From NCBI GenBank assembly GCA_035221665.1, contig CM069157.1:7936001-8000000 (forward strand): 64,000 nt of DNA, read 5' to 3'. Below are positions 4,336-62,999 of this stretch, one piece after another. The DNA comes from Okamejei kenojei (Eukaryota). The position numbers were made by a program, and so were the translations under genes. Below the pieces are notes generated by a model. That model was given only the letters and a program-made list of their open reading frames with translations. It searched no databases and was not told where the DNA came from. The number at the start of each line of letters is the position of its first letter. The stretch's first letter is position 1.

Positions 4336-6375
4336 ATCTGTTATGTAACTTCTCAGTACAACACATTGATGGTATTGGAGAGGGTTGCTTGTTTACAAAT
4401 TGCACGGCTCTGTCACCGGGGTTTGAAGAGCAACTTTCAGTTATGCATTGCTTTCCTGCAGTAAACCATCCGAAGACACTTTGTAAGATTGACACCAAAC
4501 AACACTTGGCACCCACCCACGTGAGGAGATATTACGAGCATATGTTTTAAGGAGTTTTTTTTAGTGGAGGAGAGTTTAAGGATTGAATTCCAAAGCTTTG
4601 CAACCAGATAGGTCTTACCCATCTAGTTCCTCTGACTAAGAAATAGGAGAGTTACCAACTGAATCTGGCTGGCACTTTCCAATGAACACTCAAAGGAAGG
4701 ATCTTACTGCAATTATTGAATACTACGGCAGTGAAGGACATAGTTTGTCTCATTATGTCCTTACCAAGCCAAAAAAACCATTGTCACTAATGCCACTCCC
4801 CGGCTTTTTTTTTGCTTTGTAGGTTACAGCAGAGACATTCCAAATCAGTTACGTTTTCTTTTTGAAGATGGACATAAAAAAGCTGGAGTAACTCAGAGTG
4901 ACAGGCAGCATCTCTGGAGAGAAGGAATGGATGACTTTTCAGGTCGAGACCCTTCTTCAGACTTCTTTTTCCGTTCTTCATCAGTTTTCATTTTACTTCA
5001 GGCACCCTTCAGGCAGTGGATTCTATACCCCTACCATTCTTTTAGTGAAATCATCTTCATTCAAATTCACACTAATTGTTCTGTCTGTGCACCTTAAATC
5101 TTAGATGAAATAGGATCTTCCTACTCGCCCTGTCTGGACTTCCCATTTTTAATGTACTTCAAACCTCCTCATTGTCTCTGCTGTCACAAAGAAAAGTACT
5201 GCAGTCCAGCTATTCCAGCCCAAGCAATGTCCTCACAAGGTATAGAAACAAAGAGCTGCAGATGTGGGTTAATGCACAAAAGGATACAAAGTACCTTAGC
5301 AAGTCAGGCAGCATAACTGGGGAAGATGGATAGGTGACCTTTTGGGTTGAGATCCTTCTTCAGATTGGTGTGGGAGGGGGTGAACCTTCTCTCCCTGTGT
5401 GTATTAACCTCAGTGATGCTGCCTGACCTCCTGAGTTACTCCAGCACTTTGTCTTTAATGTCCAAATCTCTCTGCACCCTCCACAGCTATTTGGGCCCTT
5501 TCTCGTGTGGTTGTGGGGGAAATGGACTGCTGAATAGAAGTAGGAAATATTCCAGTCTGTATATTGACACCAAGGTGGACACCAGTTCCCTGTCACTGTG
5601 ATTGGCAGAATCCAAAAATGTTTTGGTAAATACTTGCATGTTTCTCGAACAATACGTGCAGCCTTGTGACAGATTGCATGGGCGTAGTTGGACAACAGCA
5701 CTTGGCTGTAGTCATGCTGTTATGGTTTGTAGATGGTATGGTCCTCCTCACCCTGGAAGTACTGTGGCTGCTGTTTACATTTTGATTTAATATTGAACAC
5801 ACAGTCCAGCAATTTACAAATATTATGGTTACCCTAAAGATGGGTTGGCTCTATTTTCTGATTGGCAGCTGTCAACACCTTTTGAGTGTGCAATGCTAAT
5901 TTGTGACAAAAATAATCTAAATTTTCAATCTTAAATTTATTGTGCAGAGTTCCCAAAAATAGTGTTTTTTTCCCCTCTATTCTCTCCTCCACTGTTACCC
6001 AAGCCATAAACCTTGGGATAACACGATTGCCATGCTGGTGATTTCCACGGGCAATTGGCTGTTGCAAGGTCCCCATGGCTGCTCACCTGTTGTATGGGTT
6101 AATCCTTTGTGAGGCCTCATCAAATTTAACTACTGTAGAGCAGCTTGGAGCTTGACTTGGTACTCTCCATTTTCCCCAGTTCCCTCTGTGTTCAACTTTG
6201 TGTTTCCTGTCAATTTATTTTGATACTTTTCTTAGGTTTAACCAGGTGTGAGAAATGTTACTCGGTGAATGAATTTCTGGCAATTTGGACACCAAACTGA
6301 GCACTCTCCTGGTTCTGTCCAAATTTCAGCGCAGAGTAAAGCTCTCATGTTGTTTACCAGTGTAAACAACAGGAA

Positions 6376-6895: not shown

Positions 6896-9800
6896 TCTAT
6901 GTTCCGCTCCACTGCATATTTGGAATAGAATGTTCATATTACATTAGATCACCTTTTCTAGCAGAACCTGTTTTTCTGGTGCACTCAGTCAGGATTTTGA
7001 AATCCGATATTTTAAATAGTATTAACACCGTTGCTAAGTCTTGCAATCACGAGTGAGCAAGAGCCGAGCTGCCATTTATTCCACTCTGGATCCTAATTCA
7101 AATATTTCCTCATGAATATTTAGTATCAGTGCAGATTATTATGATGACCAAAACGTGTATCTTCCATTATTTTCCTTTGCCTTATTTGTTGTTTTTTCTC
7201 TCAAAAGGTCTTCCCTGTTCACTGCCCCTCCAACCCCATCTTTGCCTTGCCTTGCCACCTGTAAAAGGCAACCTATCAAGTCAGCTCATTTCCCATTTAC
7301 TAACACCCCAGAAAGCCAGTCATCAGTCCTTATTTGTCATTTAAAATTGTGTTCAATAAATGTGCCTCTGACGTACCATAGAATGTTTTACATTTACCTT
7401 TCTGCCCCTCTCCACTTTAAGAAGGTACTTAAAACCTCCTTATACCCTCTTCAGTTAAAAAAAAGGCACAAAGTGTTCCAGTAATTCAGCAGGTCAGGCA
7501 GCATCTCTGCAGAACATTGATAGATGACATTTCGGGTCGGGACCTGTCTTCAGACCCAAAATGTCATCTACCCATGTTCTCTAGAGATGCTGAGTTACCC
7601 CAGCATTTTGTCTATTTTTAAAAAACAGTATCTGGAGATCCTTGTTTCTACATTTTTCCTTGTCAGTTGGTGACAAATTTTATGATGTATTGCTGCATTA
7701 AAAACATCTATTCAAGATGTAAATTTAAATCATTATCATTGTCTATAATTAGAGTAATTTTCACAATTATTGGGTCACTAATTTCAAATCTATTATAATG
7801 TAGTTCTGCAATTATTGATCAGTTGCATTATTATTTTCTCAATGGATAGTAATGTCATAAGGCGATAAGTGATTGGAGCAGAATTAGGCCATTTGGCCCA
7901 TCAAGTCTATTCCACCATTCAGTCATAGCTGATCTATCTCTCTCTCCTAACCCCATTCTCCTGTCATCTTTCCATAATCCCTGACAAGTATAAAATGTAA
8001 ATATTCTATATGTTTCTCAAGGGACTTGTAGCAGGATCAGGTTGTGTGTGAGTCTGGTGGAAGGGCTATTTTGCTTTACAAGACACTTGTTTCACACTCG
8101 CTGCTCCTCCTCCCCCACCCACTAGGGTAAAGGAAGAGACTTGGTCATTGGAATGTGCTGTAACTGCCTAATCCACGTGACGAAGATCATTTTTTATTTT
8201 GTTGCTGTTTGGTGATTGCACAAGCTGCAGAACAGGATCAGTGCACAGGAGATTATGCTGTTGACAGCCTCACCCCTGCCGAGCTGTGCAAACTTGAAAT
8301 GCCTTTTCTCTATGCTCCTCCATGTCCACATCCTAGATTTCCTTCATGCCACCTTTTGGAGTTGTAAATCAGTCCATCTGGGCCTCCAGATTTGCTTTTC
8401 TAAACCCGTTGGCCCTTCTCTCTTAATTTATACCTTCTACCCCATTTGAGCAGAATGATATTGTTTTCTTTCGGATTTACAAGAATGAGAGGTAATTATA
8501 CTGAGGCATGTACGTTTCAGCAGGTATGCAATGAGGACTTTTGCCCTGTTGGTGCATTAAAGAACTGAGGGACAAAGTCTCACGGGGATCAGCCACTTCA
8601 TCCTAAAATAAACAATGTCCCCTCCCTTGGAATTTTATTTATTTATTTACACATTATACTTATGGGCGCCTTATCAAAGACTCTCAAGGACGCCTTACAA
8701 AATTTAATAAGCAGATTACAAAACATATAAGCAGAATAAAACAAAATACAAAACAAAAATAGTAGGGACAAGACACAATTCAAAGAGAGAGCAGCGGCAG
8801 TCAAACGCGCCAGTGTTCACTCTCCCTTCCGGCAGCCATCTTGGAGACAAAACAAGCAAAACATCTTTTAACATTGAACATCCACCACAGTGACTCCTAC
8901 ACACTGCTCACTGTGGTGGAAGGCAAAATATAGTTCAAGTCCTTCCCCTTGCTCTTCCATGGTCGTGGGCCTCGAGCCCCTGTTGATGGGACGATTTTGG
9001 CTCCGCGAGCCACTGTTCAGGCCCTCCGCATCAAGGCGCTCCACTTCCGCATCGGGGGTTGTCAGCTCACCTACGGCGGGTGAACGGACCTCGCGTCGGG
9101 GCAAGTCGAGCCTTCCGCGGCGTTGGAGCTCCCGTCTAGCCTCGCCCCGAGACTGCGAGCCCTTGCTGATAAAGTCCGCAGTGGCCATGGTAGGAGCGAT
9201 CCCAGGCAAGGGATCCACTCCGATGTTAAGTCCACGCCCCGCGGTGGGGCTCACGACAGTCCGAGGAGGCTTCCTGCTCCAGCGATGGTAGGCCACAGAG
9301 CCCGGAGAATGTGATCTGGAAAGTGATCACATCTCCGGAAAGGTAAGGACTTGAAAAAAACTTTCCCCCGATCCCTTCTCCCCCACATAAAACACACCAA
9401 AAAAGCATTAAAACAAACTTCTAACAAACTAAAAATAACAAAAGAATGGAAAGACAAACAGACTGCCGGTTGGGCTGCCACCTCCCCCGTGGCCACACCC
9501 ACGCCGAATGGTAAGCTATGAATGCTGAGGCATTTAAGTATATTCAAGAATGAGAATGTTGAATTTCTGGAGTTTAGAAGGTAATGATGATCGGGCAGAA
9601 AAATTCAGTTAAAGCCAAAAAGTAGCTTAGCTGTGTTTTTACAGCCAAGCTCAAAGGGCTGAATGACCGACTACTCCATTTTCATGCGTTCTAATTTATG
9701 ATTTGGCGACAAATGATGCCTTATACTCTCCCTTACGATGTTTCTGATGTTGAAAGCATCAACCAGTCGATGATATTGAATGGCCACAGGAAATAAGGTC

Positions 9801-49576: not shown

Positions 49577-52040
49577 TAGAAACATAGAAAATAGGTGCAG
49601 CAGTAGACCATTCGGCCCTTAGAGCCTGCACTGCCATTCAATATGATCATGGCTGATCATCCAACTCGGTATCCTGTACCTGCCTTCTCTCCATACACCC
49701 TGATCCCTTTAGCCACAAGGGCCACATCTAACTCCCTCTTAAATATAGCCAGTGAACTGGCCTCAACTACCTTCTGTGGCGGAGAATTCCACAGATTCAC
49801 CACTCTCTGTGTGAAAAATGATTTTCTCATCTCGGTCCTAAAAGACTTCCCCATTATCCTTAAACTGTGACCCCTTGTTCTGGACTTCCCCAACATCGGG
49901 AACAATCTTCCTGCATCTAGCCTGTCCAACCTCTTAAGAATTTTGTATGTCTCTATAAGATCCCCCCTCAATCTTCTAAATTCCAGCGAGTACAAGCCAA
50001 GTCTATCCAGTCTCTCTTTGTATGGAAGTCCTGCCATCCCAGGAATCAGTCTGGTGAACCTTCTCTGTTCTCCCTCTATGGCAAGAATGTCTTTCCTTAG
50101 ATTAGGAGACCAAAACTGTACACAATACTCCAGGTGTGGCCTCACCAAGACCCTGTACAACTGCAGTAGAACCTCCATGCTCTTGTGCTCAAATCCTTTT
50201 GCTATGGATGCCAACATACCATTCACTTTCTTCACAGCCTGCTGCACCTGCATGCCTACTTTCAATGACTGATGTACCGTGACACCAAGGTCTCGTTGCA
50301 TCTCCACTTTTCATAATCAGCCACCATTCAGATAATAGTCTACTTTCCTATTTTTGCCACCAAAGTGGATAGCCTCACATTAACCACATTATACTGCATC
50401 TGCCATGCATTTGTCCTCTCACCCAACCTATCCAAGTCACCTTGCAGCCTCCTAGCATCCTCCTCACAGCTAACACTGCCCCCCAGCTTCGCGTCATCCG
50501 CAAACTTGGAGATGTTGCATTCAATTCCCTCGTCCAAATCAAGAATATATATTGTAAATAGCTGGGGTCCCAGCACTGAGCCTTGCGGTACCCCACTAGT
50601 CACTGCCTGCCGTTCTGCAAAGGACCCGTTTACTCCTACTCTTTGCTTCCTGTCTGCCAGCCAGTTCTCCATCCACATCAATACTGAACCACCAATATCG
50701 TGTCCAGATAGAACACATCCACAGGTTCTCCCTTATCCACTCTACTAGTTACATCCTCGAATAATTCTATAAGATTGTCAGACATGATTTACCTTTCATA
50801 AATCCATGCTGACTTTGTCCAATGATTTCACCACTTTCCAAATGTGCTGCTATCACATCTTTAATAACTGACTCTAGCATTTTCCCCACTACCGATGTTA
50901 GACTAACTGGTCTGTAATTCCCCGTTTTCTCTCTCTCTCCCTTTTTAAAAAGTGGGGTTACATTAGCTACTCTCCAATCCTCAGGAACTATTCCAGAATC
51001 TAAAGAGTTTTGCAAAATTATCACTAATGCATCCACTATTTCTGGGGCTACTTCCTTAAGTACTCTGGGATGCAGCCTATCTGGCCCTGGGGATTTATCG
51101 GCCTTTAATCCATTCAATTTACCTAACACCACTTTCTGGCTAACCTGGATTTCACTCAGTTCCTCCATCTCATTTGACCCCCGGACCCTGCTATTTCAGG
51201 CAGATTATTTATGTCTTCCTTAGTGAAGACAGAACCAAAGTAGTTATTCAATTGGTCTGCCATGTCCTTGTTCCCCATGATCAATTCGCCAGTTTCTGAC
51301 TGCAAGGGACCTACATTTGTTTTAACTAACCTTTTTCTCTTCACATATCTATAAAAACTTTTGCAGTCAGTTTTTATGTTCCCTGCCAGTTTTCTTTCAT
51401 AATCTATTTTCCCTTTCCTAATTAAGCCCTTTGTCCTCCTCTGCTGGACTCTGAATTTCTCCCGGTCCTCTGGTAAGCTGCTTTTTCTAGCTAATTTGTA
51501 TGCTTCATCTTTTGTTGTGATACTATCCCTGATTTCCCTTGTTATCCACGGATGCACTACCTTCCCTGATTTATTATTTTGCCAAACTGGAATAAACAAT
51601 TGTTGTAGTTCATCCATGCAGTCATTAAATGCCTTCCATTGCATATCCACCGTCAACCCTTTAAGAATCACTTGCCAGTCTATCTTGGCTAATTCACGTC
51701 TCTGTCTTGGCTAATTCACGTCTCAAAGTTACCTTTCTTTAAGTTCAGAACCCTTGTTTCTGAATTAACAATGTCACTCTCCATCCTAATGAAGAACTCA
51801 ACCATATTATGGTCACTCTTTCCCAAGGGGCCACGTACAACAAGACTGATAACTAACCCTTCCTCATTACTCAATACTAAGTCTAGAATAGCCTGCTCTC
51901 TTGTTGGTTCCGCTACATGTTGGTTTAGAAAACTATCCCGCATACATTCCAAGAAATCCTCTTCCTCAGCACCCCTGCTAATTTGATTCACCCAATCTAT
52001 ATGTAGATTGAAGTCACCCATTATAACTATTTTACCATTG
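49577..52040 (-). mobile_element. CR1-clade (HER1-like) LINE, 5'-truncated and frameshifted ORF2
   Basis: Consecutive - strand ORFs give endonuclease (GDFN, SDH), RT (NYRPVSLTS, QHGF, GVPQGSVLGP, KFADD) and CR1 C-terminus (RPHLEYCVQFWSP); (TTCTATGT)-type tail; internal deletion near 50700. Confidence 0.95.
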
Positions 52041-54238
52041 TTCCTTTCCTCGACTGTGCAGCACAGTCCCTTCTCTCACCTCGTCTGTGTCAGTTCACTA
52101 TTAATATCTCCAGCGATCTAGTCTTCACAAAGTTCAGGTTTTGAATGCCAAAGGTTTTACTACCCACTGTTTTAAATGATTGCTCTCTCAAATCTTGTCT
52201 GCTCATTAAGTACTCTCCCACTGAGGGAAACCTCAGCATCATCATTGTTAAATAAAATCACCCTTTGTTCTGTCAATCTTGAAAGAATAAAAAAAACTAG
52301 TTTATTTCGTTTTTGTGACAAAACAGTTCTTTCATTTCAGGGACCGTCCTATTGAATGCTTTTTACTGGTATGTCTTTAGATCAAGGAAACACAGTAGTT
52401 CAGGTGTGGCCATAGCATACAATTCTAACAATACTCCATTTTTAAAGTTCAACCACCGATCAATGAAGGCCGATTTACCATTTGCATAATTACTTGGTGT
52501 TCATTGACAATTACTTGCCAATATTTGTGTGTTTTGTGCATAAGAATATGTAGACCCCCCATCTTACTCTACTCACTTGCAATCTAAACCAATTAGTGGA
52601 CCTGTCTTATAATTACTTCTACTGAGCTCTATGATCTTGCACTTTCCCCCATTTACAAGCTCTATGATCTTGCACTTTTTCCCCATTTGACAAGTCTTTG
52701 CCTGATCACAAATCCAATCTACTTTCTGATCTATTATAAATATCCTTATCGCTCCATACTCTTCTACCTATTTTCACAACGTCAGCAAACTTGGCAACCT
52801 CACAGTCTGGCACTGCCTAAATAATTAATGCAGAATGTAAATAATTGAGGAAAAGGAGTTTTTACACCATTCCAGCACAGAAAAGACACACAGTTGCTCC
52901 TCAATTATGTCAATTAAGTCAATTTCACTTGTACGGTATATGCTCTTTTCCTACATATCATTGTTTAATACACTGTTGCACAATGGTATTATTACTTAAA
53001 CCAAATACATTACCCCTTGCTTTATGTGTTATCATTTTCAGGTTCATGTATTTGATTTGTTTTCCTCTTTGTAGGTGGGATCTGACCCATGGCTGCAAGT
53101 TTTCGTTGCACCAGACATCACAAGACATCACATATACTAATTACATATGCTAATTATCACATACCTAACAAAGAGCATGGACAGTTGCTAGGGCACAAAA
53201 TGTACTCTGGCTGGGACTGCAATATCCATCACCAAGAAAGGTTGGTTAACACCACCAACAGCAAGCTGAAGTCCTGAAGGTGGTGGCCTCCGGACTGTCT
53301 CAGGAAGGTAGTGCACCAACAATGGGTAAACCAACGGCCTGTGCTCACTAAACTCCCTATGGTGGATGCATCATTTACAATAAAATGTGTAGAAGTGACC
53401 ATCATATAATCTATGTGGAGACAGACTTCCATCTTTGCACTGATAACATAAAAAGCTGGAGTAACTCTGGGTCAGACAGCATCTCTGGAGAAAAGGAATA
53501 GGTGACGTTTTGGGTCGGGACCCTTCAGACAGTGAGTTACTCCAGCTTTTTGTGTCTATGGTTTAAACCATCATCTGCAGTTCCTTCCTACACATTTGCA
53601 CTGAGAACATCCTTATTATGTTGTATGTCACAACAAACCGAAGGGTCTCGACCCGAAACGTCGCCTATCTCCTTCGCTCCTTAGATGCTGCTGCACCCGC
53701 TGAATTTCTCCAGCCTTTTGTGTACCCCAGCAGAAATGACAGATTTGTTGATGTAGCCCATTTTATCTACTTCACCTACACCACGCTGACTAGGGATAAC
53801 ATGGACCATTGAGACTGGTCATCCCCTCTCCGCCAGTCTTACTGTCTCCGACTACATTCTATCTTTGTCCCGCCCCCTTGCCTGATATCAACCCGAAACG
53901 TCGCCCATTCCTTCTCTCCAGAGATATTGCCTCGCCCGCTGAGTTACTCCAGCATTTTGTGTCTACCTTCGATTTAAACCAGCATCTGCAGTTCTTTTTT
54001 ACACAAGTTCCCAAACCAGATGCATCACGATAAAATGCTTTCTATAGCTATAGAAGTTGGTGAAAGTTGTTTGGACCATGCCAAACTTTCTCAGCCATGC
54101 AATTGAGTGCACATCTACTGCACATTGGCCAGTTAAGTAATGAGTGTGCATTTTCTAGATCGTACACTCTGCAGTCATGGTGTTCCATCTACTGGTGGAA
54201 TCTTGTAATCAAAGGTCTGCAGTCCTACTTTATGTAAT

Positions 54239-54373
54239 CTTCTTGCACATGGCTTGCACAGCCTAAAGTTGGAGGACAACTTGTTCTATTTCATCTTATT
54301 TGATTGTGCACGCCGGGTTGATTGCATTAGTCAAAACAGGGCGGATCATGTGAAAGTTGCAATCTCCCACCCC
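54239..54373 (-). mobile_element. 135-bp non-autonomous retroposon with 5' HDV-like ribozyme head and (GAA)n tail, copy A
   Basis: Perfect 12-bp TSD ACTTTATGTAAT (54227-54238 and 54374-54385); homologous copy at 56168-56803. Confidence 0.85.
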
Positions 54374-56196
54374 ACTTTATGTAATGATGATTTGGTAATG
54401 GAATTTTTTTCTCAATGCAGCTAATGAAAAGGTGGTTTCAAGTCCACCCACAACCTCAACAGAGGCAGGGCCCAGATTGAGTGCTAAGGCGAAGCTGTTC
54501 AAACAGAAATGCAGAGTAGATGATTCACTGTGCCTTTCTCCAGAGATCACTTGACCAGTTTAGTTCACTCCATGTGACATCAAGAAATGGCTGGGTGCAT
54601 TGGAAAGAGCAAAATCTGTGGAATCGGGCAACAACCCAACTAATATTTGATTGGAGGAACTCAGCGAGATGAGCAGAATCTGTGGATGGAAATGGACAGT
54701 CTACCTTTTGGGTCAGTGAAACGCTCTTCACCACCTTGGTACACATGACAATAAACTAAACTGATGAACTGAGAATGATGGACCTTCATACCACTGAATT
54801 CCTCCAACAGATTGTTGCTCCATATTCCAACATCTGAGGTCCCAAATATCCTCAGGTCCAGAATTACCTGTGGTTCTAGCCAAAGGTAGATACAAATGCT
54901 GGAGAAACTCAGCGGGTGAGGCAGCATTTATGGTTTGAAGAAGCGTCTTGACCCGAAACGTCACCTATTCCTTTGCTCTATAGATGCTGCCTCACAATTG
55001 AGTTTCTCCAGCATTTTTATCTACCTTCGATTTTTCCAGCATTTGCAGTTCCTTCTTATAATGGTTCTAGCCAGGTACAGTGTGGAAACAGGCCCTAAGG
55101 CCAAACTTTTCCACACAAACCATTATGTTCCATCTACACTAGTCCCACTTGTCTGTGTTTGGCCCATATCCCTCCAAGCCTGTCCTATCCATGTACCTAT
55201 CCTATTGCTTCTTAAACATTGCAATAATTCCTACCTCAACTACCTCCTCCGGCAACGTGTTCAATACACGCACAAGTTGTTCCAGTTTATTTCCCACATT
55301 GAAATCTACCTAACAATAAAGAAAATTACACAAGTGTGCCCTGTTATCAAAAAGCAGAATAAATCAAATCTGACTCTTATTACCCAATTAGTTTCCACAT
55401 AATAATCGACAAAATGAAAGAAGCTGTCATTCGCGTATCAAACAGCACTTGTTCATCATTGTGCAGTCTGGTTCACTCCAGGATCATACAGTTCCAGAAT
55501 TAATCGCCATTTTGATCCAACATGAACCAAAAAGCTAAGTTCCAAAGGTGAGACTGGTTTTAACATCAAGATAAGGTTTGACCAAGCGTGCCATCAAAGA
55601 GCCCTGGTAAAATTGAATGCACATCAAGGAGAAACCATTCCCATGGCTGGAGATGTACCTTGCATTAAGGTAAATGATTATTGTTGTTGGGCAGTCAATC
55701 ATTGCAGCCCTAGGACATCACAACAAGAATTCTTCAGGGTGGTGGCCTGGGATAAACCATCTTCAGTTGCTTTCCTTACATTGTAAGGTCAGAATCTGAG
55801 GTGTTTGCTATTGATTGCACAATGTTCAATTCACACCTCTAGTTTCCCTCTCCCCTGACTCTCAAAACAAAGCATCAACTATTCCTTTGCACCAGAGATG
55901 CTGCCTGATCTGTTGAGTCACTCCAGCATTTTGTGTCTCTTTGCAATACCTTGGCAAATGAAGTAGCCTATGCCTGCATGCTGCAAGGCTCAGGCAACAT
56001 TCATCACGTGCCAATAAGTGGCAATAGCAACGTTCACATCCAATAGGTGCCAGTGCAATGACTACCTCCAGCAGAGTGTCTATTCACACATACTTGAATT
56101 CAATGGCTTCAGAATCACCTGTTTCATCATCAAAAACTCATATGGACTAGCCAAATGAAGAGAAGTTCTTCTTCTTGCGTATGGCATGCACAGCCT

Positions 56197-56682
56197 TCTT
56201 CTTCTTCTGTCGTGTGTCTTTTAGACCTGCAGCTCCGTTGAGGCGAGCCAGGCCAACATGTCATCGTCCAGGTCAATCAGACCTCGTTCACCATTCGGTG
56301 GCCAGTGTTTGGGGCAACTGATGACTATGTGCTCCACTGTCTGTGTTGGGTCCCCACACTCGCAGGAGGCGCTGTCCACGAGCCCCCACCTCTTCATCGC
56401 TACTCCATAGCGTCCGATGCCTGTCCTCAAGCAGTTGAGGGTTGTCCACTGCTTTCGGGGCAGGTCCTGGCCAGGGACGTCCATGGGGTCATTGATGTAC
56501 TGGTGTAGCCTAGATGGTTCTGCTGACTTCCACTGGTCTCTCCATCTCGTCTTGACCCAGGCAGCCTTAGAAGTGTCAGCCAGTGTTGTGCAGAGCAGCT
56601 TGTGTGGCAAAAGGGTGCCGTGACTTGAGGCGCACTCATCGTGGTGTCTCTGTGACGATCTGATGGAGGAGGTGGGATTCAC
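56197..56682 (-). mobile_element. 5'-truncated Ingi/Vingi-like non-LTR retrotransposon 3' end
   Basis: ORF 56221-56682 ends with a CCHC zinc knuckle (LRTGIGR...WG...CECG...QTVEHIVISCP) and a (GAA)n tail; 13-bp TSD GC(A/G)TGCACAGCCT. Clade assignment from recalled motif similarity. Confidence 0.75.
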
Positions 56683-56751
56683 GCGTGCACAGCCTAAAGT
56701 TGTGCGACAACTGTTCTATTTGATCTCATTTAATTGTGCACGCCAGGTTGC

Positions 56752-56803
56752 TTGCATTCGTTGAAACAGGGCGGACCACGTGAAGGTTGCAATCTCCCAC
56801 CCC
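56752..56803 (-). ncRNA. Minimal HDV/CPEB3-like self-cleaving ribozyme (predicted)
   Basis: RNA GGGGUGG-GAGA-UUGCA-ACC-UUCACGU-GGU-CCGCCCU-GU-UUCAA-CGAA-UGCAA gives P1 with G1.U wobble, P2, P3, L3 UUCACGU, J1/4 GU and J4/2 CGAA (catalytic C at 56760). Confidence 0.8.
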
Positions 56804-56939
56804 AGGAGAAGTTTAGAGACTGGATATCCTGTGGCAAATGACTTGCCTCCTAATATCCCAAGCCCTTTTAACAAGGTGTGATGTAATAATCTCCATTTGC
56901 CTTTATGAATAAGGCTTGGACACCTTACACGGGTTGCCA

Positions 56940-57430
56940 GGACCCTATGGTATGAGCTATAAAGAGAGGTTGAGTAAGCTGGTTCTATATTCCTTGGAGT
57001 GGAAGAGGTGTACAAAATCATAAGAGGAATAGATCGAGGAGATGCACAGCCTCTAGCCCAGAGTAGGGGAATCGAGGATCAGAGAACATAGGTTTAAGGT
57101 GATGGAGAATAGATTTAATAGAAATCTGAGGGGTACATTATTCACACAAAGGGTGTTGAGTTGTGTTATGCAAATAAAGAATTTCATTGTCCTGTCAGGG
57201 ACACATGACAATAAACTCTTTTGACTCTTTTGACTCTTTGACTTTGAGTGTATGGGACGTACTGCCAGATATTATAGCAAACATTTAAACAATTAGACAG
57301 GTACATGGATAGGACAGGTTTAGAGGGATAAGGGCCAAACGCAGGCAGGTGGGACTAGTGTAGACGGGACATGTTGGACTGTGTGGACAAGTTGGGCCGA
57401 AGGGCCTGTTTCCATGCTTTATGACTCAAT
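56940..57430 (+). mobile_element. CR1 LINE 3' end
   Basis: Similar to the reverse complement of the 25.7-26.1 kb CR1 3' region; ends GGGCCGAAGGGCCTGTTTCC...TATGACTC. Confidence 0.8.
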
Positions 57431-57849
57431 GACTTTATGACATCTAAGGCACCAGATTGGGTATTGTCTTTGAGATCCTGCAGTCACCAAGGGACACCAT
57501 CCAATGTCCCCTGACTCCTAGTCTGAAGAAGTCTGGAAGCTGCAAACCAAAACTCGTTGCACTTATGTGCAATGACAATAAAATATATTATTATTATTAT
57601 TATTATTATTAGAAGGCTCTCGACCCTGAAACATCACGGTCTATTCGGATATGTTTATGTTTACTGTTAAATTCTTTAATGTTGTTTATTATCTTTATTA
57701 CTGTGCTGCATTGGCAAGTCAAATTTCACTGCACCAATTGGTGTATGTGATAATAAATGTCCTTTGTCCTTTTATTCCTTCACTCCAGAGATGCTGCCTG
57801 ACCCGCTGACTTGCTGCTGCAACTTGTGTCGATCGCCTCGGGTTTGTGA

Positions 57850-57994: not shown

Positions 57995-58089
57995 GCAGCC
58001 GCCGGGTGAGTGAGTGAGTGAGGGAGGGAGAGTGCGTCCGTCATCCGGCAGGTGAGCAGCGGCGTGGGGAGGCCCTCAACGCGGCCTGC

Positions 58090-58339
58090 GACCGGCGCCG
58101 TGTGTGTGGGGGCCCCGGGACCGGCGGTGTGTGGAGGCCCCGGGACCGGCGCCGTGTGTGTGTGTGGAGGCCCCGGGACCGGCGGTGTGTGGAGGCCCCG
58201 GGACCGGCGGTGTGTGTGTGGAGGCCCCGGGACCGGCGGTGTGTGGGTGGAGGCCCCGGGACCGGCGGTGTGTGTGTGGAGGCCCCGGGACCTGCCGTGT
58301 GTGTGTGTGTGGGGCCCCGGGACCGGCGCCGTGTGGGTG
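58090..58339. repeat. GC-rich minisatellite, ~8.5 copies of GACCGGCG(CC)(GT)nGGAGGCCCCGG, unit ~25-33 bp
   Basis: Directly visible tandem units differing mainly in internal (GT)n length. Confidence 0.95.
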
Positions 58340-60172
58340 AATTCCACTGGAATTTAAAAGGATACGAGGATATCTAATCGAAACGTATACAATTATTACG
58401 GGATTAAGAATAAGGGGGAGGCCATTTAGAACTGGGATGAGGAAAAACTTTTCATTCAGCGAGTTGTGAATTTGTGGAATTCTCTGCGCCAGAGAGCCGG
58501 GTTCGACCCCGACCACGGGTGCTGTCTCCGGAGTTTGTACGTTCTCCCCGTGACCGGTTGGTTTTTTCCCGGTGCTTCGGTTTCATCCCACGCTGCAAAA
58601 GACGTTAATTGCATGGGAGGAATTTTTTTTTTTTTGCGCCAATTGACCTCCGTAAATTGTCCCTGGTTCTAAAGTGAGTGGATGAAGTATAGATCTCGGC
58701 TGTGGAGTTTTTATCCTTGTGACGGGCGAGGGGGGGGGGGGTGTTCCTTCCTCTCATCTCCTCCGCTCTCCCGTGCCCGGCCGGCAGATTATAGCTCTCC
58801 CTCGGGTTGCGGGCGCCAGCGTTGCAGGCAGTCCCCGCATACGGACAGGGGGGACCGGCGGGGTGGGGTTTGTAGGGACCTTCTGCCTCCCGGGAGGTCA
58901 GTGTGCGGCTTCATCCGGCCTCTGTTACGAACAACTCACTGGAGCAAACCCCCACCCTGATGTGTAATTTGCCATCGTAAATTACTCCACACGTGTGGAA
59001 GAGGAGGGATTCGGGAGAGGATGGGGGATACAGGCAATTTAGTGTAAATGTGTTTAATGGAGAGCATGGCCTGGTGGACAAAGGTCTTGCCTCTGCATTG
59101 TATGATAATGACTAAAGTATTGACGCAGGCAATTGATCCGTTATTTTTTTCCCTCTGGCTCCTGGCCACGTGTTTCCAATCCTTGTTTTCCAGCCTGAAT
59201 GGCTGCTTTTTAACTCTTATTTCTAATTTCTAATGCTTGTTTTACATCGAAGCCTTTTGTTTTATGTCCTTTCCCATCATCACTGGGACCCGAATGTATT
59301 CCCTGCATTAATTGCATCATGGACCTTGAGATATAATACACTATATCTCTATCTCTATCTATATATAGCACATCTTGCTTGTCTTTTCCTGAGAGGAACC
59401 AGAGCATGTGCCATTAAAGAGGCAAGTTGTAATACTCTAATTTGGATCTTAATGGAGGTTAAGTCTGCAAGTGGGTCTATATTGATATTTTGGATAGCCT
59501 TATTAGTTTTCAAATATGGCTTGGGATCTGGTCAGGTAGTTGTACATGCAAGGAGTAGAAACAGCATGAGATGTGCATAATCAAAAGATACTTGGGTTAA
59601 GAGTTATGATGTGGCCTCCTTTTCACCTGTGGACATGTGCAATGCTCTTTCCGATGCTGTAAATATTAAGTTTTTGCATTGGCTGTGAAATGCTGTGTTT
59701 GAGAAACTGTTAAAATTAAAACATGTACTGGGGCTGCTGGCAAAATGGTACTAGTGTAAATTAATCAACTGCATTTGTTTCTTTCCACAGTACAATGGCA
59801 TCGTATAGTGGACGTGGGAATCGATTCCTGAGACGAGCTGCAGTACTTATGGAGGTAAATGTTTAATTTTATCAATTTAATGTTTTTTCAAGGTAGCAAA
59901 TTTATTTGATTTATGTATAGATGTTCATTAACAGGTGAATGTTCCATGATGTGCATAACTATCCACTGGACACGTATATCAGATGGGGCTACAAGAATAA
60001 CTGGATAAATGTGGCTGAATGTCTTAAGGTAATTGGTTCAGATGTTTGACGTGAATTAAGAAAAGTGAACACTTAGTTATTTATAAAAGTGCTTGTGTAA
60101 TTGAGCACATTCTAGCTGTTTTTGTTGTGAAGTGCCTACACTATTTTCTTGTCTTTGTGCAAGACAAGCCTA

Positions 60173-60593: not shown

Positions 60594-60801
60594 CCCAACG
60601 TGGACATCCAGCAGCTCCTGTTTGGCACTGTCCGTGTGGCGTGTGGGAGCGTAGACTTTGGTCTATGACGTACAGTCCCGTTCCATGTCGTTGGAGAGCA
60701 ACCATGTCCCTGGCTTTGAGCTGGTGAGGACTGCATCCTGTATATTCCTAGACCTCCCCAGTCTGCTGTGACTGGGAAGATAAACCATACAGGGTACATG
60801 T
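60594..60801 (+). ncRNA. SNORA73: SNORA73 (U17/E1/snR30 family) H/ACA snoRNA, copy 1
   Basis: Starts CCAACGTGG, closes CGTTGG, H box AGAGCA 60695-60700, m1 ATATTCCTA 60742-60750, m2 AAACCAT 60782-60788, ACA 60796-60798 plus 3 nt. Confidence 0.95.
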
Positions 60802-62344
60802 CTTACATCTGACAAATCATTTGGCATTTTAGCCTGATGACCTTTGATCAGCATTTCGAGTGCTTTGAGCATTTTCTGTTTTGATTTCTAGCATCTGCAG
60901 CTTTTTGCTTTCAGATCCTACTTTTGCAACTGTAGGATGTTCCACATATTGTGGGAACATTGGGAAGTGATTAAATCAGCATGGTCAACAATGGGCAATC
61001 TCTTTTCAAAGATCTTGATGGGTTATGTTGTAGTTTTCTGCAATTGTATATGTATCTTAAAAGAGACCGCTCTTGAACAGATATCGATTTGGGGGGAAGA
61101 AAATATAGTTTTGAACTAACTGATCAGGCATCATCTCTGGAGAGCATGAATAGGTGCTGTCTGAAGAAGGGTCTCGACCCAATACGTCGCCTATTCCTTC
61201 TCTCCATAGATCATAAGTCTGCAGATACTGGCTTAAATCAAAGATAGACACAAAATGCTGTCTGTCCTGCTGAGTTACTGCAGCATTTTGTGTCTATCTT
61301 TGATTTAAGCCAGCATCTGCAGTTCATTGTTTAAGAAAGAACTGCAGATGTTGGACAAACGAAGGTAGACAAAAATGCTGGAGAAACTGAGCGAGTGAGG
61401 CAGCATCTATGGAGCGATGGAAATGGGCAATGTTTCGGGTCGAACCCCTTCTTCAGACATCTGCAATTCTCTCCTACACATGAATAGGTGATGTTTCAGG
61501 TCCGGCCCTTTGAACTAACATTATTGGTTCTTACCTGTTTTGATTTGACTGTTAACAAGTGGCTTGGTTAAATGATGTTGATGAGGTTCCATTTTTAACA
61601 TCAAATGTTTACTACTGTGATGACCAGGTGCTGTTCTCCTATGTGTCATGACATCAGATTTCTAAACCAAGTAAACCATTACTTTAGCTAATGTGAACCT
61701 GGATTATTGAGTGGGCAGTTGGAAAAAAAAAGTTTTATTATTGTCACTTTATTGATGCCGGGGTGACGTTTGTGGAAGCAAAAATATGGTGTCTTGTTTT
61801 ACTGGTTTGATGGAAGAATTTTGAGATTATCCACTGCGTTTTGGGGCTTCAGCCCTTTGTCAAAAGTATCCCATAATGTTGGGCACTTTCATCAAAAATA
61901 ACTTCAACTAATTTCATTGCTAACTTCTATTAAATGATTTTTCTACTAGTTTCTGTGGGATTCTCATTTGATGATGAGCATGAAATCTTTATGGTCTTTG
62001 AACACAAGAATTTAAGGTTGAGTTGAATACAATTGAAGAAACCAGGCCATTAAGTTCAACGTATAGTTCTGCTTGTAGCTTTTTCAGTAAGTGCTGTGGA
62101 GAACTCCAAATTAAATTATGCCTTTTGTTTGCAGGAGAGAAAATTTGGCAAAGGTAGCTGAGATCTTATGGTGAGTATTAGTTGCTGCACCAAATTTAAG
62201 CTCCAAGTAGAATATAACACATTTATTAGTACATGGTCCCAATTATATTTCTAATTATATGCCATGCCAATTTGCAAACTACTCTTTGTAAAGCCATGGT
62301 CTTGCAAATACAGCCAGTAGTGGATTTGGCACCTCCATTAATGT

Positions 62345-62561
62345 TCCAATGTGGGCATCCAGCGAGGTTACTCTTGCCTGGCTCTGTCTGTATGGCGTGT
62401 AGGAGCATAGACTTGTAGTCTATGATGTATAGTCCTGTTCCATGACATTGGAGAGAAAGCATGTCCCCAGTCACTGGGCTGGTGAGGGCAGCACCCTGTA
62501 TATTCCTAGACCTTCTCAGTCTTTGCAGTGTCTGAGGAGATAAACCATGCAGGATACAATT
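62345..62561 (+). ncRNA. SNORA73: SNORA73 (U17) snoRNA, copy 2
   Basis: TCCAATGT/ACATTGGA closing stem, H box AGAGAA 62452-62457, m1 62500-62508, m2 62542-62548, ACA 62556-62558. Confidence 0.95.
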
Positions 62562-62786
62562 GCTTCTTTGAGTCTGGAATAAAGATGAGTGTGAATGGTA
62601 TTGATTTTGGTTGATTGGTGACTTTGTTGATCTGCTTTGCTTTAGTGTTGCACAGTACCAAAGATGTGTCCATCTTCACCTGGGGAATCGGCTGAAAGCC
62701 AGGGATGCAGGGCGATGCAGTGCAAAGAGGTGATTTGTTGAAATGCTCATTCCTCAGTATAAGAGTATATCTCTAAACTAAAGAAA

Positions 62787-62999
62787 CCCAACGTGGGCAT
62801 CCAGCAAGTTTATTCTTGTCTGGCTCTGTCCGTGTGGCATGTGGGAGCGTAGACCTTTGGTCTGTGACGTACAGTCCCATTCCATGACGTTGGAGAGCAA
62901 GTGTCCCCAGCTTTTAAGCTGCTGAGGACTGCATCGTGTATATTCCTAGACCTTCTCAGTCTACAGTGGTTGGGAAGATAAACCATGCACGGTACAATA
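62787..62999 (+). ncRNA. SNORA73: SNORA73 (U17) snoRNA, copy 3
   Basis: CCAACGT/ACGTTGG stem, H box AGAGCA 62894-62899, m1 62940-62948, m2 62980-62986, ACA 62994-62996. Confidence 0.95.

Follow-up and report, generated by a model that had tools for sequence, protein, structure and literature searches.

A 135-bp repeat on the minus strand of Okamejei kenojei contig CM069157.1 (assembly GCA_035221665.1) raises the question of how so short a mobile element arises and moves, and whether the fold at its 5′ end takes part by cutting the element's own RNA. A reading of the surrounding 64,000 nt made from the letters alone (contig positions 7,936,001–8,000,000, here called the window, from whose first base all coordinates below are counted) had proposed a promoterless SINE headed by a minimal HDV/CPEB3-like ribozyme, freed from host read-through transcripts and reinserted by an Ingi/Vingi-type reverse transcriptase (RT).

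Two copies in the window and a dispersed family

Copy A is read on the minus strand from 54373 to 54239 and is flanked by 12-bp repeats at 54374–54385 (left) and 54227–54238 (right), which are identical, as expected of the perfect target-site duplication claimed for it. Its first 54 nt (54320–54373) form a P4-less HDV-type fold with the parts originally described: P1 GGGGUGG/CCGCCCU, P2 GAUUGCA/UGCAAUC, a damaged P3 (C·A mismatch), an L3 with the change G25A, a GU J1/4 and a J4/2 whose predicted catalytic C lies at 54330. The (GAA)n tail is also present, reduced in copy A to just two GAA(G) units. Copy B, 87% identical to copy A over 122 bases, begins at the same base, G1 (56803), with its predicted catalytic C in J4/2 at 56760, again as first noted. 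It consists of a 5′ piece (56683–56803, minus strand) whose fold is intact except for one P2 mismatch and a 3′ piece with tail (56168–56196, minus), and is bordered by a 10-bp target duplication (56804–56813), the right copy of which (56167–56158) has one mismatch. Between the pieces lies a 5′-truncated Vingi-type LINE of 486 bp (56197–56682, minus; family V1), with its own 13-bp duplication (56695–56683 and 56196–56184) and an open frame that carries a C-terminal Cys/His knuckle and is followed by a GAA tail; an interpretation of copy B as a 3′-truncated copy was rejected because it is split by this fragment. When the window was searched with a descriptor for the HDV-type fold, copy B alone passed, and the failure of copy A (P3 mismatch, L3 G25A) suggests that its ribozyme is probably dead.

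The proposed absence of a tRNA, 5S or 7SL head was borne out, as ARAGORN found no tRNA in the window and Rfam gave no tRNA, 5S or 7SL match at gathering score in the window or at E ≤ 10 in 53800–57500. The HDV and CPEB3 models of Rfam, which had been suggested as a check with Infernal, likewise found nothing at copies A or B at these thresholds and scopes; because Rfam models include P4 and are sequence-specific, these misses lower the probability of membership of those Rfam families only. Three SNORA73 genes (60595–62999, plus strand) are the only Rfam matches in the window, and both element copies lie upstream of them on the opposite strand. The neighbourhood also contains a decayed LINE with RT and endonuclease fragments (50343–52075, minus), a GC-rich tandem repeat with units of 25–33 bases (58075–58351) and, around copy B, a pair of 135-nt inverted repeats with 83% complementarity (55076–55210 and 57287–57421), which probably represents another repeat family.

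Beyond the window, the suggested genome-wide check of copy number revealed a multicopy family: a 34-nt head pattern matched exactly at 4,974 places and a family-specific 24-nt internal pattern at the junction at 9,114 (reversed controls, 0 in each case). The overlap of two samples (15/30 and 32/70) gives a family size of approximately 11,000–18,000 copies, an estimate that under-counts older copies. Nine organism labels are attached to runs that contain, or are listed with, the element sequence. Ends were analysed in copies from contig C1, namely the first 70 of the 100 junction matches listed, a choice made without use of the head. The predicted uniformity of the 5′ end was confirmed, with 67 of the 70 copies reaching G1 (alignment from positions 1–3) and the other three starting at positions 17, 36 and 58, and no common sequence was found upstream of G1 except in two same-flank pairs. 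These pairs, L246/L247 with a spacing of 309 kb and L267/L268 with one of 84 kb on C1, are local segmental duplications. Removal of the three truncated copies and two duplicates left 65, among which target duplications were found in 53 (mismatched-flank control, 6/319), flush with G1 in 41, 1–4 nt off in 12 and undetected in the remaining 12; their length across the dispersed family is 8–15 bp. The element is thus real, and has spread as a single unit that ends in a simple-repeat tail and is flanked by target duplications. An untemplated G precedes G1 in just 2 of 53 genomic junctions. The preceding base is T in 39 of the 65 copies (A 12, C 9, G 5; background for T, 30%), and this T is usually the last base of the duplication; the same excess is seen at the heads of the LINE families V3 and V4 (20/30). 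It may arise from an untemplated A on the cDNA that pairs with the target.

The 65 copies fall into two subfamilies with divergences from the column majority of 4.6% (21 copies) and 3.6% (44 copies), values biased low by the exact-match selection of copies. Decay after insertion appears neutral, with changes in 67 of 2437 core cells and 16 of 509 free cells. The fold is intact in 29 of 65 copies (about 45%), and C44, the predicted catalytic residue, is kept in 59 of the 63 copies that have a letter there. Two paired positions, T29 (7/63) and T36 (10/63), vary three to five times as often as other non-CpG sites, and their variants define no clear sub-lineages. No covariation or selection was found among the element's own 65 copies, a comparison that is uninformative because inserted copies decay neutrally; covariation, which the sequence-only reading had suggested as a check, was found across the heads of the LINE families described below.

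The parent LINE and its relatives

The LINE families were reached from the insert in copy B through its relatives and the N-terminal part of one of these, which led to five families, V1–V5. One of them, the 3.0-kb Vingi-type LINE V5, is the source of the element, in which an internal deletion has joined the initial 81 to the final 41 bases of the LINE. Element positions 1–77/81 align to V5 5′ ends at about 85–95% identity and positions 95–135 to V5 3′ ends, including those of L236 and L218, each of which has both ends. In copy A, the 5′ part corresponds to 54293–54373, the 3′ part, comprising the last ORF codons and stop, the 3′ motif and the GAA tail, to 54239–54279, and between them lies, as read against the V5 ends, a 13-nt junction (54280–54292), some of which repeats the adjacent end of the 5′ part (all minus strand). 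The full-length V5 copy L236 (3,040 bp) has the element head at its start and the element tail at its end. L236 and L230 begin at the element's G1, L218 and L193 7–9 bases further in and L216 about 65 bases in. V5 ORF sequence was present in 28 of 30 loci, most of which terminate in the last 36–41 bases of the element, and the end of the V5 ORF itself falls within the last 41. Copies of V5 are 3.0–3.1 kb long, mostly 82–90% identical to each other, and have T runs directly after base 81. V1, the family of the copy B insert, was rejected as parent since neither of its ends could be aligned to the element, as were V2, V3 and V4, from which the element's ends are absent.

An Ingi/Vingi-type RT had been proposed as the partner of the element, and this is supported by the finding of V5 as the parent family, with its Vingi type set by architecture. 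Vingi elements are described as compact, with a single ORF encoding an APE endonuclease and RT and without RNase H (PMC13708176). Pfam searches with seven pieces of V3 and V5 gave RVT_1 and weak endonuclease (APE) matches and no RNase H, and RNase H families are likewise absent from all 120 listed relatives of V3. Both translated V5 copies have broken ORFs, and the single ORF of V5 is consequently inferred. Since no named Vingi or Ingi reference was among the matches of the protein searches, V5 is called Vingi-type for an architecture that fits this clade and not for its place in an RT tree.

Among the relatives, five V3 copies (L147, L148, L149, L151 and L156) are 98–99% identical, one with an open frame of 778 residues, and V3 copies end in a 13-base 3′ motif common to element subfamily a; V3 may recently have acted as a driver in trans. 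V4 has independently given rise to another bipartite dwarf, very young and approximately 200 bp long, with a P4-bearing HDV-type head and target duplications (L311–L340). The V3/V4 head pattern has 459 matches in the genome (G000), with the tail motif at position 183–188 in 16 of 30 loci.

The 5′ fold, RNA ends and competing explanations

Each of the five families begins with an HDV-type fold at its 5′ boundary, the boundaries of V1–V4 having been set independently by homology among copies. The plan is a nested double pseudoknot with a 7-bp P1, P2, a 3-bp P3, P1.1 (C-G in V2–V5, U-A in V1) and a 7-nt L3, and the minimum-energy fold of the head contains P1 and P3. In an alignment of 13 natural heads from V1–V5 and the element, gap-free in the helices, 98.7% of 234 cells are paired and both partners change in 12 of the 18 pairs, so that the covariation looked for is evident between families; slid alignments pair at 37–48%, and the covariation score was reached by none of 500 shuffles. 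G1–G3, the catalytic C that opens J4/2, the last A of J4/2 and the U and C of L3 are invariant in all 13, and the L3 G in all except copy A. By eye, P4 in V1–V4 is a stem within 16–40 bases, whereas V5 and the element have 5 nt instead. Changes from V5 to the element and between subfamilies are structure-neutral (A32G turns U-A into U·G; positions 8 and 45 are unpaired). The descriptor was written after the V1–V5 heads had been seen and was used to choose the V1–V4 rows, and the high pairing figure is therefore partly built in. It gave 13 matches in 1,186,654 bases of LINE loci, some of which overlap, and none in 2,373,308 shuffled bases; the 12 listed of these 13 are all at family heads or element copies, and a further four matches have another base at the catalytic position. 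Such selection cannot explain why five LINE 5′ ends differ widely in primary sequence and keep the same pairing, which supports, on comparative grounds, an HDV-type double pseudoknot conserved across five LINE families of one genome.

None of the indexed runs containing the element is recorded as RNA, and the RNA evidence comes from raw reads that carry the same species label. Three raw RNA runs (X21, X23 and X24, each sampled at 1–5%) and one contig set were aligned on the natural copy L004, in which G1 is position 1501. The runs belong to 'organism C', which may not be the species of the window, and variant shares differ (A32 in 14–40% of reads). In X21, 1,615 reads have a loose end directly before 1501, with a consensus (agreement 0.79) that ends in three G and that we take to be the full template-switch oligo. 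This consensus comprises the whole oligo, including its own three G but no additional G before G1, giving seven G in all; the junction is read from the consensus rather than from per-read G counts, with a median loose length of 31 for an oligo of 30. The oligo tail likewise leads the consensus at this base in the other two runs, X23 with 561 reads (agreement 0.42) and X24 with 712 (0.44). Sense depth at the 5′ end in X21 reaches about 1,851, against 539 for antisense, and about half of the reads there begin at G1. Many others run through G1 into the flanks, and the loose ends before 1499–1500 are long, mixed and not oligo-like, as in read-through. Poly(A) behind positions 1624–1639 in X21 was not counted as polyadenylation because oligo-dT can prime on the A-rich tail. 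RNA 5′ ends in these public reads therefore fall at G1, the predicted cut site. Capped RNAs mostly add one extra G at the oligo junction and about 90% of uncapped RNAs add none, according to the data given in PMC6885630, so the direct joining of the oligo to G1, without a further G, is as expected of uncapped RNA; the reads fit an uncapped RNA that starts at G1, and also a capped RNA that starts at G2.

We consider it probable, on the strength of the predicted fold together with these RNA ends, that the 54-nt P4-less HDV-like ribozyme cuts before G1 and thereby releases an uncapped unit RNA for a LINE RT. Transcription of a copy would begin at a promoter upstream of it or within it, the fold would cut just before G1 by means of C44 and so free the unit, uncapped, from longer read-through host transcripts, the ORF protein of V5 or a sister Vingi-type family would recognise the 3′ motif and GAA tail, and a new copy would be inserted by target-primed reverse transcription. 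That the signal at G1 is instead a library artefact, produced by strand invasion at T-GGG or by switching on G-start RNA, such that the anatomy of the DNA alone stands, seems quite unlikely. The T before G1 in 39 of 65 copies does create a TGGG site, and a bias of template switching towards uncapped RNA that starts with G is documented (PMC6885630); strand invasion, however, predicts that the G of the oligo fall on G1–G3, with a loose end before 1500. The 276 X21 reads of that class have an agreement of 0.35 and do not resemble the oligo, all seven G are seen in the class before 1501, and the best-supported loose ends listed include none at another G run of the element.

The ends at G1 could also reflect transcription initiation. 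If the head were an internal promoter like Pr77 of L1Tc/NARTc, itself also a ribozyme, RNA synthesis would begin at G1 or beside it, with the fold serving a second function or protecting the RNA. Such dual function is reported for these closest known heads (PMC3383444), the share of X21 reads at G1 and the excess of sense over antisense depth would be equally expected, and the seven G would also arise from a capped start at G2. We nevertheless regard a promoter in place of cleavage as unlikely: the start would have to coincide with the predicted scissile bond, a capped start at G1 is contradicted by the RNA consensus without an extra G, a cap-derived G is rare at genomic junctions (the 2 of 53 above), and the V1–V5 heads diverge in sequence while their pairing is kept. 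A promoter is compatible with the ribozyme reading if both functions coexist. It is very unlikely, in our assessment, that the P4-less fold no longer cleaves and that the ends at G1 are produced by Pol III initiation or by an exonuclease stopping at the pseudoknot. Pol III could transcribe the whole element, which lacks any run of four T, and weak words at 5–16 and 37–46 are reminiscent of the A-box and B-box consensus; the B-box-like word, however, lacks G53 and C61, which are invariant in that consensus, and the same head starts the 3-kb V5 LINE, where the T runs follow base 81. The frequent variation of the paired T29 and T36 and the mere 5 nt in place of P4 would suit a fold that has lost activity, against which stand the retention of C44 and the activity in vitro of P4-less HDV-like ribozymes (PMC10879173).

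With cleavage before G1 as the favoured explanation, we lean, by a modest degree, towards a broader model in which more than 10,000 dispersed 54-nt P4-less HDV-like ribozymes would cut in living vertebrate cells, the Vingi-type clade would use HDV-like heads of which one lineage lost P4, and promoter-free dwarfs of 135–200 nt would arise repeatedly and cut read-through host transcripts. Thousands of fold-intact copies could then cut host transcripts, and the pile-up of reads at G1 offers rare evidence from cells on where such an RNA begins.

Comparison with known systems

The classification as a SINE had to be given up: with a LINE-derived head and no small-RNA head found by ARAGORN or Rfam, the element is not a classical SINE, and its V5 5′ end, V5 3′ end and amplification as a unit are those of a bipartite, internally deleted non-autonomous LINE (SIDE type), a class already described (PMC5786205). 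This kind of element is known from NARTc, RIME, R2 SIDEs and Vingi derivatives. Kojima (2018) names Vingi among four clades that yield 5′+3′ deletion derivatives (PMC5786205), of which Vingi-1_EE and the body of SINE2-1_ACar are likewise bipartite, and the present family bears on the question left open there of why only some LINE clades make such dwarfs. In the literature searched we found no precedent for the Vingi-type parent, for an animal LINE headed by a P4-less fold, for the copy number or for the RNA-end data, and these features appear new. Neither the element nor a Vingi ribozyme was found described in that literature, although an earlier description may exist. A review assigns hammerhead or HDV-like ribozymes to certain LINEs and SINEs (PMC6765202) and does not list Vingi-type LINEs, to which HDV-like 5′ processing would here extend. 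As Vingi 5′ UTRs serve in gene-insertion tools (PMC13708176), a self-cutting head would matter for template design.

In L3 (UUCACGU), J1/4 (GU) and J4/2 (CGAA), the words of the element resemble those of the CPEB3 ribozyme. CPEB3, however, has P4 and a single intronic locus, and the Rfam CPEB3 model misses the element. R2 SIDEs and RTE-derived bipartite elements are likewise non-autonomous with both LINE ends, and R2 SIDEs keep an HDV-like ribozyme (PMC3414825); R2 is site-specific with a restriction-like endonuclease, whereas the present element is dispersed, with an APE-type parent and 8–15-bp duplications. The trypanosomatid L1Tc/ingi derivatives NARTc, RIME and SIDER also join two LINE ends and have an HDV-like fold from +1, and ribozyme cleavage has been shown for NARTc, NARTco and several SIDERs (PMC3383444 and PMC4035085), in vitro in the case of NARTc and SIDER (PMC4035085). 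These elements are at least 263 nt long, have P4 and derive from parents with RNase H, in contrast to an element of 135 nt that is P4-less, derives from an RNase-H-less parent and reaches 10,000–18,000 copies in an animal genome. In fold, the element is closest to forms such as drz-Mtgn-1 and the phage theta ribozymes, which also lack P4, place the catalytic C first in J4/2 and cut before G1; nearly 99% of P4-less forms are in phages and none came from the human, mouse and protist genomes searched (PMC10879173). A minimal HDV-like fold previously reported almost only from phages thus occurs in an animal, within a natural series in one genome of P4-plus (V1–V4) and P4-less (V5) families, and stands at the 5′ end of both a LINE family and the dwarf derived from it.
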